Source: Lama glama
Lineage: Eukaryota
Direction: 5' to 3'
Length of the DNA: 64,000 nt
Assembly: GCA_028534125.1 (NCBI GenBank)
Contig: CM052820.1
Coordinates: forward strand, 15,066,001 to 15,130,000
The translations under genes and the position numbers were made by a program. Below, piece after piece: positions 33,105 to 62,968 of the stretch. The notes beneath the pieces were generated by a model. It was not told the origin of the DNA. It searched no databases and saw only the letters and a program-made list of their open reading frames with translations. Position 1 is the stretch's first letter, and the number at the start of each line of letters is the position of its first letter.

Positions 33105-42752
<9,648 letters not shown>

Positions 42753-47515: not shown

Positions 47516-50024
47516 TAGAATTCCTTTGAAATTGAGAATAAGTTAAGAATGCCTGCTATTCTGTTTCTATTGAACACTGTACTGTAGGTCCTGAATTGGA
47601 GTGGGCAACTCCGAGTGTATGGTGAATAGAAGACATGAAAGTTGGGGGTGGAGAGAGGGAGGTGATTCCTTAGGAGAAAGTGTCTCACACTTCCTGGAAG
47701 CAGTTTCATGGTAGCAGGGCTCAGAAGGGAGGTTGGCTTTGAGTTCGAATTACTACTATTAATCACCATAGGTTTTAATGTGCAAATCATGCCTTAGTGT
47801 TTTCAAAGCACTCTTTACATCTTCAGCCTCATTTGATTCTCATAACAGCATCATTATTAAATTCCCGCTTGATCACATAATACATGCCAAGCACTGTGCT
47901 AAGAAACTTACATGCATTGGCTCCTGTCATTCTCTCAACGACTCTCTGAAGTTAGTCATTTCATAGATGAGAAAACTGAAGCTTGGCAAGTTTAATTAAA
48001 TTTCCCTTGGTCACAGAGCTAGTAAGAACAGGGACTCAAATACTGAGCTGGGCAGAAGGCAAACTCCTGCACCCCAGCCAGTCTCTGGATTCCTCCACCT
48101 TGTGGTCGCTGTGCACTTTAGGGAAAGTGGAAATTCAAATCACACTCTGGTTTCTGGGGTGGGTCTGTCAGACTGGCCCAAGTGTTAGCTCATTCCATCC
48201 TTTCACCATGATATCACTAGAGATGTGAAGACTCAGAAGTTGGAGCACACGCCCAGCCTCCATGGCCCGGAGACCTGCTCAAGGGATGGGCAGGCGACCT
48301 TTCCCACCAAAACCACCAGGCCAAGGTATGTGAGGCCTGTGCCCTGTCCACACTGCACATGTCTGGTAGACAGAGCAATTGGGAAGGAAATGAGTTTTAG
48401 GGCTATAGGTAGGAGCTGTCAGAAGTCCTATGAATAGAATGAAGACAGGGCCTGTCTGATTTCAGCCAGAAGCAACCCCATGATCCATTAGTGATGTCTG
48501 CAAAGGGAGGGGAGTGGGAAGCACACCTTCTATTTGCTATCCCCAACTTAATCTTTGTCTTCTAGGGGCAAGCTCCAAGAGAAACTGCCACTGTTTTTCC
48601 CTAGGGTGAGAGTCCTTCATGGATTTTGGGCCTCTTCTCTTCTTCCCTGGGCCCTTTCACCCTTTTCTCTTCACCTTTGACTCCTGGCTTCCCTCCCCTC
48701 AGAGCCCAGTGACCGAGGTGAACAGGGAGCAATGCTTGAACTCTGAAGTGGTTTCAGAGGCCCTGAACCAAGAGGTGACCAACCCCAGCAAGGCCTTGCT
48801 GTGTGTGTTTTGGTGAGGGGGGCTGGCCTTGTCCAGGAAGGCTGAGCCAGCCAAGAGTCTGTTTAAAGAGGGAGGCAAGGTGAAGGAAGGGACAGGTGTT
48901 GGCTGATAAGGAATGACAGGACTCCACTGAGCCTGATGGAGAACCTTCAGGAAGAGAGGGCCTGGAGGATAGGAAAGAACAGCGCTTTCAGTACAGACAA
49001 AGCCAGCCCAATCCTGGCTCTGTCGCTGCCCAGCTGTGACCTTGGACACATTATCCAAGCCCTTCAAGTCCCTTCTTCCACAGCTGTGAAATGGGGATGG
49101 TAGTCATGGTGACCCTCAGGGATTGATGTAAGAATTAAAGACAACTGTATGAAAAACGCCTTGGCTGCCAGTGGTTGCTGGATTCTAAGGGAGATTCTTC
49201 CTTTTGCCCACTGGAGGGTGCCCCCACAAGCATCTTTACACAGACACCTTTACACAGATTGCAGAAATGTGAGATACAGGGGCTGCGGGTCTCCAGTGGC
49301 CTGGTGTTCTGTAAGATCAAGCACAGGCACAGAGCTCGAAGGACCTGCAGAAATCTACTTCAGAACTTGTCTAACTTAAAAAGTATATACACAAGCCCTG
49401 TTTTTCTAAGAAAATCTTCAGTATGACATGACCCTAATCCTCCCCTCACCCACCCATCCGTATGTATTATACGTACATACATAAAGATTTTGTCCTAAAA
49501 TGAAGTGGGAGAGACGTAGCCAGAGCACCTTACATTCAGCCTCCCCCTTGCTCTTCTCTTGGTGTCGAGGAATTCACCTGAGTAAAGCTTTCAGGCATCT
49601 CCTTGGGACCCTTAAGTTCTTTGGCGCCAGGAGAGAAAATCTCCCATCTAATAGATATCTACCCGTCTTTACAGATGAGAAACTGAATGGGCAGGTGTGG
49701 AGCAGAACTAGACCAAGTGTCCTGACTCCCAGCCGTCCCTCTGCACTGCCCACACCCTTCCTCCCAGGGACCCTGGTAGAGGTTGGGCTGCTTCACACCT
49801 CAGACTTTTTTATTCAAGGATTGCCTGAGGAGGTGACTACTTGAACTTTAACCTAAAGGACACAAAGAAACAGCCAGGGGGAGAGCTGGAGGAAGAGTCC
49901 GGAAGGCGGGGAGAAGCAAATACAGTCGCCCTTAGGTGTGATGGTAGAACTTTCAGGGCAATGGACAGTATGGCCTGTGGCAGGAGAGGAGCTTGGAGAT
50001 GAGGCCCAGGACTACTCAAGGTTT

Positions 50025-55320: not shown

Positions 55321-57065
55321 CCTAATAATTAAAACACAAAAAAGTAATGCTTAGAGGGAAAATATAGATTTACTTGCGTTTATTGTAAAGAAAAAAAAAT
55401 TGAGTCAATGATCTAAGCTACTAACTCAAGAAGCTAGAAAAAGATAAGCAAAACTCAAAGAAAATAGAAGGAGATAATAGTAAAGAATGGACATCAAAAA
55501 AATGGGTAAACAATAGAGAAAAACCAATAAAACCAAAAGTCAGTTCTTTAAAAAGATCAATAGCATTTGTAAATCGCTAGCTACACTGATGAAGAAAAAG
55601 AGAGGAAAAATATGAAGTATCAAAATCACGAATTTAAAAAGTGAAATCACTTCAAATTTCTACAGCCATTAAAATGATAAATATTATGAATATCTTTATG
55701 CTAACAAATGTGATAACTTAAATGTTAGAGACAAATTTCTTGAAAAATTCAAGTTTCCAAAACAGACATGAAAAGAAATAGAACAACTGAATAGCTAAAG
55801 AGATTGAAATTGTAATAAAACTTTCTCACAAAGAAACTCCAGGCCCAAAGAGGTGAGACGTATAGCTCAGTGGTAGAGCCCATGCTTGGCATGCATGAGG
55901 TCTTGGATTCAATCCCCAGTGCCTCCATTAATGGGGGGAAAAAAGAATCTCCAGGCCCATACACTCAAACAAGTAATATCAATCATACAGAAACTCTTTC
56001 AGAACATAACAAAAGAGGAATGCTTTCTGACTGATTTTATGAGGTCAGGATAATCAAACATTTGGAAGAAAGCATAGGAGAAAAATCTTTGTGAATTTGG
56101 GATAGGTAAACATTTCTAAGAACACAGAAAGCATTAGTGATAAAAAATAAAATCAATAAATTGGACTTCCTCAAAATTAAAATACTTTGCTCTTCAAAAA
56201 CACTATTAAGAAAATTAAAATTAAGTGCTCAGAATTGGGGAAAATATCCATAAAGCATTAACCTGTTAAAGAAGTTGTAACCAGAAGTACTAGAGAATTA
56301 TGTCAATTATGGAATAGTAAATATTTTTAAACAATTGTGTTCATTTTCAATGAACACATCAATGAACAAATCACCTCAAATCTAGTGGCTTGAACAACAC
56401 AAATTTGTTATCTTACAGTTCTGAAAGTCATAAGCCTAAAATCAATATCAAAATGTCAGCAGGGCTGTGCTCCTTCTAGGGGCTTAAAGGGAGAATATAT
56501 TTCCTTGTCTTTTTCAGCTTCTAGAGGTTGTTTGCATTCCCTGGCTTGAGGCCCCTTTCTCGTACCACTCCAACCTCTTGCTTCCAATATTATAACTCTG
56601 ACTACTGATTGTGACCCCTCTACTTCTCTTTTCTAAAGACTTTGTGATTATATTGGGCATACCAGAAAATCCAAGAAACTCCCCATCTGAAGTGAACCAC
56701 ATTCTAAGTTTAATCACACCTGCAAAATCCCTTTTACCATGTGAAGTAACATATTCACAGGTTCTAGAGATTTGAATGTGGACATCTGTGGGAGCCGTTA
56801 TTCAGCCTAAAACAGATATCATAATGCTATTGTGATTATGCAGAAAATTCATTCATTCTAAAAGATGTATATTGAATTTTTTAGGTGTGAAATGTCATGA
56901 TGTCTGTAAATTACTTTCAAATACTTCAGCAAGAAAAAGAAGCAATTGTGACAAAATCTTATTAATTGTTAAATCTGAGTGGTAAATATATTAATGTTCA
57001 TTTGAGTCTTCTCTTTTTATATTTGAAAATGTTCATAATAAAATTTTAAGCTTAATAAAAAAAAG
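55320..57065. mobile_element. Old L1 fragments (sense) interrupted by a SINE and an MLT1-type LTR (about 56350-56815)
   Basis: A-rich L1 ORF2-like sequence; MLT1 motifs tctagtggcttgaacaacacaaatttgttatcttacagttctg. Confidence 0.7.
55849..55941 (+). mobile_element. tRNA-Ala-derived camelid SINE inserted in an L1 fragment
   Basis: SINE head with TSD aaagaa(a/t)ctccaggccca. Confidence 0.88.
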
Positions 57066-57716
57066 ATTGAAATGTCAGTCTAGAGTTTAGGAATCCTGTA
57101 ACGAAATTACAGTGGAAGCAAGGGATCAGTTAGTTAGCTAGTTATTACAATAGCTCTGTTAAAAAGAGTACAGTGGTTTGATCCCAGGCTATGGCAGTGG
57201 ATGTGGAGAAGTAGATGGATGTGCTTATTCTTAGCAGGTCAAACCCATGATTGCTGAAGGGTTTTAGATGGGTGAGGGCAAAGTTAGCATCAAGATAATA
57301 AAAATAGACTAGATTCATTGAGTGCCGGCTACCCAGTTGCTGTTCATTTTTAATCCTCACAGCAAACCTATGAGTTAGGTACAAATCGCACCTGCGTTTC
57401 ACATGCAGTCCATTTCTCCAACCTTGGGACTGGGAGTAGAGGCAGTAGTCCTTGGCATACGATTTATGTAAAAAAGGAGTGGGTTCCTGGGGATGGGGTG
57501 TGGTGGGATGGTTGTGGGGGCGGTAGGGGAAGTAGGGGCTGAATAGGAGTCCGCAGGGGCAGGGCCCGCCAGTGATTGGCCCAGATGCCAAGGGAGGGTT
57601 GTGCAGATCCCGTTTCGCTAGCGGGTGGGAAGCCACAGCCCCGCTCAGTCCCTCAGGCAGCTGTCCCTACCTTCTCTGCGACTTAGGTGGGGAGCCAGCG
57701 CGCCAAGCCCAGGAGG

Positions 57717-59992
57717 ATGCAGCGCCTGCTGTGGCCTGGGGGCTCCCGGGGGCTCTGGCTGCTCCTCTGTTTCCTGCTTCTGAACAGCCGCCCAGGGGGC
57801 TGCAGCGACATTGGTGGCCACGGTCAGGAGGAAACCTGGGGGGTGCGGGCAAGGCTAGAGAGCGATTCTGAGCGAAGCACGCTGGGATGGGGGAGCTCAA
57901 GGTTTGGAACTTAAGAGGAAAGTAATGTGTTTAGGGGTGAAAATAGATGAATGTAGAGAGCATCTCGCCCAAAGAGGCGCAGGCTTGGAGTGGGGCTCGG
58001 CATAGGGGCTCTGCGACTCAGAGGACTCAGGGAAGCCCACTCAGGGGAAGACTGGGGATTTGGGAAGAGGACGGGGAAACATGCATTGGGGGAAGTAAAA
58101 CTGGCCTGTGAGGCCGCAAGAAAAGCAAGACGAGCCAAGGGGCCAGGGAAAAGATGCCTATGGCTGAGGGGTAGGCAGGGGACTAGAATCTCTAGACTGC
58201 AGGAGCAGGGACCGCGGGTTATCGGAGTCCTGGCTCCGAAGAGAAGGCTGGGCCGAGGGATGAGCCAAGGCTTCTTTATAAGCCCCCCAGAGCCTGGTGT
58301 CAGCGATCCAATTTCTGCTAAGAAGTGGAAGGCTAGGCCGGGGTAGAAGAGGATGGAGAGAGAAACAGTCCATCCTTTTTCCATCCCCTTCACTCTGAGC
58401 CAGCCAGGTAGACCATCGCTGACTCATGTCTGAGCTGCCAGAGACCGACTGCGCAGACTCAGGGATTCCAGCGCCTGGCGCGTGGGGCAGACGGCGCAAA
58501 CTCAGAGCCTAACGCCAACTTTCCTCCCCCGATCTGTGGGGTTTAGATGCCAATGCAGAGGACTCCCGAAGAACTGTGGGAGGAGGCCTGATGTCAAGCG
58601 ACAGGAAGCAAGGCGTGGGGAGCGGGTGGGGGTTGGTTGTGAGGACGATCAAGCCTTGTGGGAATGCCCAGCTCTCTTCACCGCTCAAAGTCGCCCCCAT
58701 GTCAGGCTTTGGCCATCACTCAGCACCGCGGACAGCGCCAGGAGCCCTGTGGGTCTGACCCAGGGTGTCCAGTTCACTGCTTTTCCTATCCGTTCTGGGA
58801 GTGCTGCCTCAGAGAACAATCTCTCCTTCCAGAAGCTCTTTTCCTTCTCAACAGGGTGCTGGAGGTTCTGGTCCTTCCTAAAGCCAGGAAATTAATATTA
58901 GGATCCATTTGACTGGGGAGAATTCGCAGTCCATAATGACTTGTGGTAATTCCACTATAGGGAAAACAAACAAACAAACAGACTCCAGTCCTACCCACCT
59001 ACCTGGAATAAGGAAAGTGTGTATAGCATTAGGGATTATCTCCATCTCCTTTCCTTCCCTTATGCAGTCTGCCAAACTGTGGCTTTCAGAACAAGGATCC
59101 AGACACTCAAACCCTATACATACCATACTTTTTTTCCTTTAAGGATTCCAGGCCTCCTCTGTAATCCCCTCCAGGCTTCAAAGACTTCCCTGAATGCAAT
59201 TTGCCTGTTTTCCATGCCCTGCCTGTTCACCTGATTATCCATTTCATGTGTGTAGCTTTCTGAGTCTCTGCTTATCTTAACCTCCACAGGATGCTCTTTG
59301 CCTGTAAGCTTGGTTCTTACTGGAAGTTGGTGCCAAAGATGAATGAGATTCAGGGGCTGAAGAACAGGGAAAGTGGTGATGGGGAGGGAAATATGAAAAG
59401 AAGGAGGACTTGAAATTAGGAGGGGGTCTGATGAGGGGGACAGAGACCAGTGAACCCAGGGATGTTAGTGGGAGGAAGCTGCTTTCCTTCAACTGGGATT
59501 TGTAAGTCTTCTGGCCAGGCTCCTTTCTCACACCACTATTTTGCTCTTAGATGGTCAGAGCCAAGTGGGAGTGGGGCAGCTCTGGTCCCTCCAAGGATTT
59601 ACTACCCCAGTCTTCCAGCGCTTGCAAGTTTTCTTCCAGCAGATTGTGCCTCAAGGTGAGTAAAAGGTGAAGAGAGTCTGGGACCTGGTCAGATACAAGG
59701 GTAGGTAATAATGAGGGGCTTTTTATTTGAGAACAGGTTTTCTTCCCCAGATATCTCTTCTTGAAACTTTTCTGTCATGCTTACCTCCTGGAGGACCAGG
59801 TGGGACCAGAGTAAGTGTGGAGCTGGAAGGACAGGCTGTTTGCACTTGAACATCCTGGAAGAACCCAGTAGAGGCTTCTAGAAGAAGCCCTTGGAAGATG
59901 TCAGCATCCAACTCCTTGAGACTAGCCCCAACCCCAACCACAGGCACTATCTGAGATTTTACAGAGACAGGAATCCTTAAATTCTCAGCCAG

Positions 59993-60043
<51 letters not shown>

Positions 60044-62968
60044 CAGCTTCTGAGTAGGAAGCAGAGCAGATTATAGGACAAATAGAAGGGAGGGATGAAG
60101 GGAGTGAGGAGCCTCTTGAAGACAAATGGCCAACCCTTCCTTATAGCAGAGTTGCATGAATGAGAGAAGAGTCCCATAGGAAATGCAGCTTGAGTTCATT
60201 GTACTACTACCACTACGAATGTCTATCATGTTTATAATGCCTTAGAGCAGCGGTTCTCAAAGTGCATCCCTGGACCAGTAGCAGCATCACCAGGAGACTT
60301 GTTAGAAATGCTAATTCTTGAGCGTCATCTCAGACCTCTTGAATCAGAAACTCTAGGAGTGAGGAACAACAATCTGTGTTTTAACAAGCTTTTTGGGAGA
60401 TTCTGATGCACCCTAAAGTTTGGAAATCACTGTCTTAGTTTTCTCAGCAATTTTTATATCCCTAATCTCATTTAATCCTCACAATAGCATCAAATGAATC
60501 AGCAAAAAGAGTATAGTCTTAATCCTAACTGAACATTTATTACATGCCAGGAACTGTGCTATGCAACTTTTATATGTCATCTCATTTAATTCTCTCCACA
60601 AATTGTGATCTTTTATCTACCTGAGGGAGAGGGGGAGTGTTGATCTCACTCTGGTCCCTGGAGTGGGCCAGTTAGAACATCCCCGGTGTTAATTCACCAC
60701 ATCTTTTCACCCTGCAGGTTTGTTCTGGAAGGATGACATGACCCAGAATGTGATGACCCAGAAGATGGGACACATTAGCAAACTCCATCCCCAGGATCCA
60801 TGTGTGAGGGTTGGACAGGCAGCCTTTCCCACCAGAACCACTGGGATGAGGTATGTGAGGCCTATGGTCAGTCCATGCTGTCTGACTGACAGACAGAGCA
60901 AGGAGGGAGCAGGCATTAATGCAGGTAAGAGCTGCCAGGAGCACTATGAGAATGATTCAGAGGTCCTGTCTGTGATCTGCAGGAAACAGTTCCATGAGCC
61001 ATTAGTAATGTCTGCAAAGGGAGAGGAGGCGGGTGCTAACAAGCCTAGGTCCCATTTATCATCCCCATGTCTTTTAGGGGCAAGCAAGAGGAGAAACTTC
61101 GACTCTTATTCCCCAAGGTGAGACCCATGTGTCTTCTCAAGACATGAATCCTGACTTTGGGTCCCATCTCTTTCCCTCAGGGGCTCTGCCACCTTTTTCT
61201 GTCTCCTTCTTGATTCCTGTCTTCCTTCTTCACAGAGCCCAATGGCCAAGGTGAACAAGGATCAGTGCTTTACCTCCAGAGTGGTTTCAAAGGCCTTGAA
61301 ACAAGAGGTGGCCAACCCTGTCAAGGTGAGGGCTCACTTTTTCTTGGGAGGCTAGAATCACCAAAGACTTCTTTAAATGAGGGAGGCAGGTGTGAAGGAG
61401 GGAATGGGCATTGGGATGTGAACAAAAAAGCTGAAGAAAATATCTTTCCCAATTGAATGGTACCCAGATTTTCCTGTCTCTCAGACCACCTTTGGGTGTC
61501 CAAATAAGAGGTTGAGGGGCATGATGCAGGTGCTGAGAGCCTCTAAGGGTGAAATGATCTATAGTATCATGAAAAACAATTGAGTTTAAAATAGGCATGC
61601 AAAATTGAAGGGTTTCACAATTAAGTAAAAGGTCCCTCTTTTCTCCATACACTCCTCTGTATATAGCAAGTGATAGTGAAGTTACTTTGGATGAATGGAA
61701 GAGGTAGCCCAGAGGCCTTTGCATTCAGCACCTCCCTGCCTTGCTCTACTCTGTGGCCTGAGTGAGCATCCCAAGGTTCTGCATTATCTCTTTGGGATGC
61801 TTGAACACTTCAGAATTCGACTGAAAACACTCATATAGCCCTCCCATCTATCTTTATAGATAAGACATTGGGGCCCAGGCTGGTCAAGCAGCTTACTCAA
61901 GGCTTCATAGCAGGTTCATGGCAGAGCAAAGACTGGACCCAGGTGTCCTGATTCTCAGCCCTTTCCCCTGCAAAGCCTCTACCCTTCCTCTCAGGGACTG
62001 CAGCAGGGGTTGGGCTGTCCCACATACCAGACTCTTCAACATGGACAAGTCTTTTTTTGGACTAAGGCCTAAATTACAAGAAGGTGCCAGCCAGAGGACA
62101 ATATAAAGGAAGGGCATCCAAGGCAGAGAGCACCATACTGACAAATGCCCTGAGACAAAGATCCATAGTATGTCTGAGGGACAGATGGAAAAGTCAGTGG
62201 TAGAGAATTAGGTTAGAGAATGTAGGACTGGGGTTGACCACACAAGGACTCATAGATCATGGTGGAAGGTTTGGATTTTATTCCAAGTGTGGTGGCAAGT
62301 CGATGGGGAAATTTTAAGGAAAGGGATATCATAATGTGATATGATTTGAAAAGACCACTCTAGTGATATTGGGGGATGGATTGTGAGAAAACTAAGAGTG
62401 AAAACTAAGAGGCCTATAAGGAGCTGATCATCCTGGTACAAGGGAGACTGAGGTGGCTTGGACTGGAATGGTGGCAGTGGAGTCGGCACCTCCAGCTGGC
62501 CGTGCACTCCATCCAGAGGCATCCTGCTTCTCTGGGGCTTCCAGCCCCTTATGCTCTCCTAGGAAACCTGTTCTCACTCCCATAAGATGGCAGCTGGGCT
62601 TCCTAAGCCTGGATCGGCTGCTGGGTCGGAGCACACAGAGCTAAGTGAAGACCACCTTTGGGAGACTTGTTGGTGTGGTGCTTTCAAGAAAACAAACAAG
62701 ATACTGCCATGCTTCTCCAGCCTGAGCCCAAGGGAAAATCACAGGATGAGAACCCTATGAATTCCATGTGGGAGCAAGGGGACAAGCACTCAATCGATGG
62801 ACTGAGTTACTGTGGGCTTACTTAAATCAGGCTGTTACTGAAGCATTTTGGAACGAGTAGGTGAGGGAGGGGCCACCTTCCCACATACTGATTCCAATCC
62901 TTTGTTTCTTGTTTTAGGGCTTCTTTGAGTCACCCTCCACTGTAGGCCACAACCTTGTCGCTGACTGA
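57717..62968 (+). CDS. RESP18: Regulated endocrine-specific protein 18, 6 coding exons, 174 aa, with signal peptide
   Basis: Exons 57717-57822, 59551-59655, 60718-60850, 61078-61117, 61236-61325, 62918-62968 = 525 nt, all GT-AG and in frame: [61 protein letters not shown]...[16 protein letters not shown]...[16 protein letters not shown]. Position next to DNPEP fits known synteny. Confidence 0.95.
58719..58739 (+). promoter_or_regulatory. RE1/NRSE (REST binding site) in RESP18 intron 1
   Basis: CTCAGCACCGCGGACAGCGCC matches 19 of 21 positions of the consensus TTCAGCACCACGGACAGCGCC. Confidence 0.9.
59995..60041. repeat. (CA)n microsatellite in RESP18 intron 2
   Basis: Perfect dinucleotide run. 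Confidence 0.97.
60248..60432. mobile_element. MER5A-like hAT MITE in RESP18 intron 2
   Basis: 185 nt, terminal inverted repeats cagcggttctcaaagt / agtttggaaatcactg, degenerate 8-nt TSD ccttagag / tcttagtt. Confidence 0.85.

Follow-up and report, generated by a model that had tools for sequence, protein, structure and literature searches.

RESP18 is a studied neuroendocrine (hormone-cell) and blood-pressure gene, and an origin by duplication from PTPRN was reportedly proposed for it in 2007 by Zhang. It counts as a relative of the luminal domain of PTPRN. The available passages of PMC10201709 describe its homology to the RESP18 homology domain of PTPRN (ICA512/IA-2) and assign the condensing region, residues 94-126, to PTPRN exon 4. 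The homology domain of PTPRN and PTPRN2 corresponds to PF14948, which is also found in the RESP18 described here. As far as the available passages go, the kinship of RESP18 with PTPRN is already known, and a DNPEP origin was not found in the literature searched. Term searches returned no mention of DNPEP in PMC10201709, PMC11802530, PMC9855394 and bioRxiv 521351, and the available passages of these papers do not contain the exonised intron, the junction site or an origin of the 3' half in DNPEP. A literature search for RESP18 together with 'aspartyl aminopeptidase' found no paper. Among the matches listed, the three papers naming all three genes deal, as far as the listing shows, with deletions, structural variants or associations, and mention the genes once or twice. 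None of 65 papers listed in further searches mentions RESP18.

Chimeric genes at tandem-duplication junctions have been studied in a Drosophila yakuba population sample (PMC5460883). In the passages of that study, as at the locus analysed here, adjacent genes lie on the same strand, a duplication spans parts of both, and the chimera sits between its parents with the promoter of the 5' parent. Unlike the chimeras of the yakuba sample, as those passages describe them, the one at this locus is ancient, as intron identities of 63-70% suggest, is fixed in a named mammalian gene and is readable to ~20 nt.

Materials and Methods

The window is the whole stretch of DNA that was analysed, 64,000 nt of the llama (Lama glama) genome (G000:C5:15066001-15130000), and plain position numbers refer to it. 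All comparisons were made within this one 2.35-Gb genome, and the PTPRN sequence was taken from the 80 kb adjoining the window's end. Parents of RESP18 were searched by self-BLAST of the window, extended into the same genome. Gene names are based on Pfam matches and on knowledge of the locus, and the splicing of RESP18 was predicted from GT/AG sites and the open frame. The junction was located with a jumping pair-HMM anchored in PTPRN at the left and in DNPEP at the right, run with seven parameter sets. For copy A, the end anchor of the HMM was 1 nt off, at ~190 nt from the seam.

Results

DNPEP (33.1-42.8 kb), RESP18 (57.7-63 kb) and PTPRN (from G000:C5:15136394) lie in this order, all on the + strand. 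PTPRN is outside the window, its exons 1-4 beginning ~6 kb past the window's end. Counted from the ATG exon, the DNPEP model has 15 exons (33105-42752) and 0 internal stops. Its intron 11 occupies 38524-38913, its exon 12 starts in phase 2, and phase 2 is found in only 2 of its 14 introns. PTPRN exon 4 (L004:1262-1358, 97 nt) is followed by an intron of 880 nt, in phase 2. The RESP18 model has six exons (57717-62968) and a frame open to the stop. PF14948 (RESP18) matches exons 2-3 of RESP18 and exons 3-4 of PTPRN; it is over the cut-off in RESP18 exon 3 (74.7 bits), in exon 2 (49.1 bits) and in a further copy described below, copy A (36.1). All five matches of the peptidase-domain HMM PF02127 (Peptidase M18) fall within DNPEP and none in RESP18. 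The features are collected in Table 1.

Table 1. Positions in the window of the parental, chimeric and duplicated features of the DNPEP-RESP18 locus
Feature	Position	Strand	Remarks
3' parent: intron 11 and exon 12 of DNPEP	38524..38953	+	15-exon model; PF02127
Copy A, putative junction	48387..48417	+	copy A at about 47.6-51.6 kb
Spacer upstream of RESP18	56823..57283	+	colinear with the spacer upstream of PTPRN; 62%, E 2e-27
RESP18 exon 1	57717..57822	+	derived from PTPRN exon 1 and promoter; 57569-57854 against PTPRN 75% ungapped
Dead PTPRN exon 2 remnant in RESP18 intron 1	59290..59339	+	acceptor kept, donor lost; by alignment
RESP18 exon 2	59551..59655	+	derived from PTPRN exon 3
RESP18 exon 3, segment with homology to PTPRN exon 4	60718..60814	+	65/97 identical, ungapped
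RESP18 exon 3, last 36 nt	60815..60850	+	putative exonised start of PTPRN intron 4
RESP18 intron 3, chimeric	60851..61077	+	227 nt, GT..AG, phase 2
New donor and ~25-nt block fitting neither parent	60851..60879	+	block shared with copy A
Likely PTPRN intron 4-derived part	60880..60931	+	PTPRN L004:1403-1455
Inferred PTPRN-to-DNPEP junction zone (first DNPEP-derived base)	60911..60933	+	
DNPEP intron 11-derived part of RESP18 intron 3	60926..61077	+	parent 38749-38913
RESP18 exon 4, equivalent to DNPEP exon 12	61078..61117	+	both 40 nt, phase 2 to 0
RESP18 exon 5, equivalent to DNPEP exon 13 minus 12 nt	61236..61325	+	same frame
Decayed DNPEP exon 14 remnant, now intronic	62457..62550	+	approximate ends
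RESP18 last coding exon, equivalent to DNPEP exon 15	62918..62968	+	51 nt to the same stop

RESP18 follows PTPRN in its promoter, its first two exons and its first two introns, and the introns downstream of the seam, the exon 14 remnant and the 3' flank follow DNPEP, with intron and flank alignments to the parents at 63-75% ungapped. RESP18 exons 4-6 share 29 of 58 residues with DNPEP exons 12, 13 and 15. Along RESP18 the switch from PTPRN to DNPEP is single and colinear. By these alignments, the 5' half of RESP18, introns included, is PTPRN-derived and the 3' half is DNPEP-derived. No match of the PTPRN-spacer type was found in two control stretches. The earlier note had proposed a PTPRN/DNPEP fusion joined inside RESP18 intron 3 and had called exon 3 IA-2-like. 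Exon, intron and flank alignments agree on the first point, and we consider a genuine fusion located in this intron almost certain; on the second, exon 3 resembles PTPRN exon 4 over its whole homologous part and both carry PF14948. The likeness to DNPEP (aspartyl aminopeptidase, Peptidase M18) lies in the reuse of exons 12, 13 and 15 in the same frame, whereas exons 1-11 are absent and exon 14 is decayed. Judged from its sequence, RESP18 is not a peptidase. The dN/dS of RESP18 against its parents is 0.65 (58 codons) and 0.50 (31 codons), values that say little on selection in RESP18, given the constraint on the parent branches and a value of 0.54 for copy A.

Several smaller features accompany these alignments. 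PTPRN exon 2 is 51 nt long and in phase 1 on both sides, and its loss keeps the frame in RESP18. PTPRN intron 3 holds a stretch of ~1.8 kb (G000:C5:15138730-15140557) lacking in RESP18 intron 2, where a CA repeat at ~60000-60075 stands in its place. The first 600 nt of this stretch have five dispersed matches, and we take it to be presumably L2-like; if it was inserted after the duplication, the event would date to the time when that old element was active. Repeat-like stretches at 61857-62315, 39696-40152 and 49273-50021, presumably MIR- and L2-like, are common to RESP18, DNPEP intron 13 and copy A, and are therefore older than the duplication. A short open frame preceded by an AG in RESP18 intron 5 (61485-61575), noticed by eye, is a candidate for an alternative last exon.

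A head-to-tail duplication that began in DNPEP intron 11 and ended in PTPRN intron 4 would be expected to leave this pattern, with colinear parents to the left and right and a duplicated spacer. It is very improbable that RESP18 arose instead in two steps, a PTPRN duplicate capturing DNPEP exons later by retroposition or insertion, or by homologous recombination between repeats. The locus did undergo several duplications (copies A and B), and the order-informative sites are split 22/21/22. However, introns 11-14 and the 3' flank of DNPEP were co-duplicated, which excludes retroposition, and gene order and duplicated spacer fit a single tandem event. PTPRN intron 4 and DNPEP intron 11 are without long homology (62 of 500 random targets and 68 of 1000 shuffles were as good), and this lack argues against (non-allelic) homologous recombination. 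A 44-nt resemblance between the two introns was rejected as chance: it is out of register with the seam and was equalled by 27 of 1000 shuffles and 187 of 2000 random targets.

Intron 3 of RESP18 is flanked by exon 3 (60718-60850) and exon 4. The onset of DNPEP intron 11 similarity near 60925, at 38750 in DNPEP, had been read off the sequence in the earlier note and was confirmed. RESP18 60926-61077 aligned to DNPEP 38745-38913 with a score of 5958. None of 1000 shuffles scored as high; among 4000 random genomic targets, a pool that contains the true paralogues, 3 did. BLAST extended the match over 60931-61328 against DNPEP 38754-39170 (67%, E 1e-28). The fusion reading would be at odds with DNPEP similarity running on upstream through exon 3, and this similarity is absent. 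Exon 3 against DNPEP 38364-38750 was at chance level (704 of 2000 random targets as good), as was 60851-60925 against DNPEP 38665-38750 (1185 of 4000), and similarity to DNPEP upstream of ~60911 was rejected by segment tests and by the DNPEP-only boundary. PTPRN similarity after 60926 was likewise rejected, since 3030 of 4000 random targets were as good. The right-hand bound of the seam is firm.

On the left-hand side, the same reading needs PTPRN similarity at the 5' end of the intron, and similarity to PTPRN intron 4 both reaches and passes the donor. The score of 60880-60931 against PTPRN intron 4 was reached by 19 of 4000 random targets and 10 of 1000 shuffles, and positions 48361-48415 of copy A align to the same PTPRN stretch (33 of 4000 and 10 of 1000). 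With the target widened to the rest of PTPRN intron 4, 102 of 1500 random targets and 31 of 1000 shuffles did as well as the post-donor match. A PTPRN match beyond the exon 3 donor is likely, if modest.

The jumping pair-HMM placed the first DNPEP base at 60914-60933 (95% interval) in all seven parameter sets, with a posterior of 0.42 for 60928-60937, beyond 60925. The parent positions of the junction zone are ~L004:1435-1459 in PTPRN intron 4 and ~38728-38756 in DNPEP intron 11. For the last PTPRN base, RESP18 alone gave medians of 60914-60925 and lower bounds of 60871-60913; the probability that this base is at least 60890 was 0.987, equalled in 2 of 300 nulls. With the whole of PTPRN intron 4 replaced by random DNA, the observed score was reached in 0 of 200 runs. 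One-parent boundaries were 60913-60932 for DNPEP only and 60834-60967 (median 60924) for PTPRN only. In simulations built on the inference model's own assumptions, the junction fell inside the interval in 148 of 150 runs, with a median error of 3 nt and a 90th percentile of 21 nt. Joint analysis with copy A, which shares ancestry with RESP18 and is non-independent evidence, gave 60911-60932 for the first DNPEP base.

A different left-hand bound would follow if the fusion is real and PTPRN sequence ends near the donor (~60850), with 60851-60911 being filler or diverged sequence and the seam known only to 60-80 nt. The block at 60851-60879 indeed matches neither parent (scores reached by 2002, 1228 and 188 of 3000 random targets), the joint analysis lets the last PTPRN base lie as far left as 60833-60867, and the intron match to PTPRN reaches only p about 0.005-0.03, or 0.07 against the widest target. 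Yet the PTPRN matches of RESP18 and copy A are colinear and fall on the same PTPRN coordinates, and a null in which the PTPRN intron beyond +36 was randomised reached the observed likelihood in only 3 of 300 cases. We hold this shorter PTPRN part to be distinctly unlikely. The seam lies very probably at 60911-60933, its left-hand bound (PTPRN similarity to about 60915-60931) being likely, with p about 0.01. The 75-nt interval of 60851 to about 60925 put forward earlier was right in placing the junction inside the intron; the seam is narrower, sits at the right edge of that interval and may exceed it by a few bases.

The earlier note also suggested looking for microhomology at the switch point, and none could be demonstrated. 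That the join was mediated by one of the short motifs which both parents have close to the seam, AGAGG and AGGCTG, is doubtful. Both motifs lie within the inferred parent windows, and a 5-nt ancestral match at 0.67 identity would survive intact only ~13% of the time, so that absence is weak evidence. Against such a join, the best 12 junction solutions have microhomology of 0-1 nt in RESP18 and 0-2 nt in copy A, and the probability of at least 3 nt, 0.03, was equalled or exceeded by 110 of 200 nulls (null mean 0.05); in this low-powered test there was no excess over the null. Shared words of at least 6 nt occurred in 13 of 150 null windows and of at least 5 nt in 25 of 150.

RESP18 exon 3 has 133 nt as compared with the 97 nt of PTPRN exon 4. 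Its last 36 nt align to the first 36 nt of PTPRN intron 4 with 20/36 identities, ungapped (23/36 in copy A), a match reached by 11 of 4000 random targets and 0 of 1000 shuffles. The present donor, in phase 2, sits 36 nt inside the homologue of PTPRN intron 4. At the ancestral donor position, also in phase 2, the GT is lost in both RESP18 and copy A. Alternatively, the ancestral PTPRN donor might still be in use, with a local duplication or insertion spanning the end of the exon as the source of the additional 36 nt; in favour of this, GTATG opens the donors of both PTPRN exon 4 and RESP18. We find this origin of the 36 nt rather unlikely, given their ungapped alignment to the very start of PTPRN intron 4 and a sequence after the new donor that is without a second copy of the 36-nt block (2002 and 2358 of 3000 random targets as good). 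A duplicated donor block was also unsupported by the random-target test.

A donor shifted by 36 nt into former intron sequence keeps the phase. Phase 2 is common to PTPRN intron 4, DNPEP intron 11 and RESP18 intron 3, and the frame was compatible most likely because the two parental introns are both in phase 2. The phase 2 donor of exon 3 and acceptor of DNPEP exon 12, to which the earlier note ascribed the frame, do agree; that explanation needs amending in one respect, as the donor is not that of PTPRN and lies 36 nt downstream of it.

Two further copies, A and B, lie between DNPEP and RESP18. Copy A carries the same junction and the same shifted donor as RESP18. Its first DNPEP base is at 48385-48418 at best, with the upper bound at 48447-48480 in four of the seven parameter sets, and the parent coordinates of its junction overlap those of RESP18. 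The equivalents of exons 4, 5 and 6 are 40, 90 and 51 nt long, have open frames and keep the stop. Exon 3 keeps 46 codons open although 21 nt are deleted across the old acceptor; phase 1 would result if the AG at 48221 were used. Over 291 exon nt there are only 2 gaps of 1 nt, which cancel each other, where 12.8 would be expected. Relative to RESP18, dN/dS is 0.44. The exon 5 donor reads GC, and a homologue of exons 1-2 was not found by self-BLAST of the window and the same genome. Copy A looks to have been coding for long and lately decayed, or to be still in use. Copy B (54.5-55.3 kb) has only the tail of DNPEP exons 14-15, with an early stop. The four 3' tails are nearly equidistant (K2P 0.60-0.69; bootstrap of the order 62), which suggests that the copies were duplicated in quick succession.

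Discussion

The locus has the gene order, the DNA-level duplication, the single colinear switch and the open frame with compatible phases by which a tandem-duplication chimera is recognised, and on this sequence evidence RESP18 is very probably one. With high confidence, the switch at 60911-60933 can be taken as the fossil junction of the ancient tandem duplication that created RESP18. Then, how might the gene have come about? A block from DNPEP intron 11 to PTPRN intron 4 would have been duplicated head to tail. The join would have been non-homologous, or at most of short homology, about 80-100 nt into PTPRN intron 4. A splice joining PTPRN exon 4 and DNPEP exon 12 would have kept the frame from the outset, under the PTPRN promoter and with the PTPRN signal peptide. 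The loss of the old donor and its replacement by the one 36 nt downstream presumably came later, ahead of the split of copy A, and this shift would have added 12 codons with the phase unchanged. PTPRN exon 2 and DNPEP exon 14 would then have decayed.

We lean towards the full account, in which RESP18 is an unreported PTPRN-DNPEP fusion whose birth site is readable to ~20 bases after roughly 100 million years. On this account the fused frame was intact when the gene was born, PTPRN intron 4 would later have supplied 12 more codons, and amplification would have produced a small tandem family, the second member being protein-coding for much of its history. The age is our assumption, from mammalian rates and from the presence of RESP18 in rodents and people.

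The exact position of the seam adds modestly beyond the fusion itself, and the junction could serve as a marker dating the origin of RESP18 in mammals. RESP18 would stand as a clear example of a gene born by duplication, its junction being mappable. If the account is true, the structure-function boundary of the protein would run between a PTPRN part, a 12-residue intron-derived linker and a DNPEP part, and the C-terminal third of RESP18 would be repurposed peptidase sequence behind the PTPRN promoter and signal peptide.
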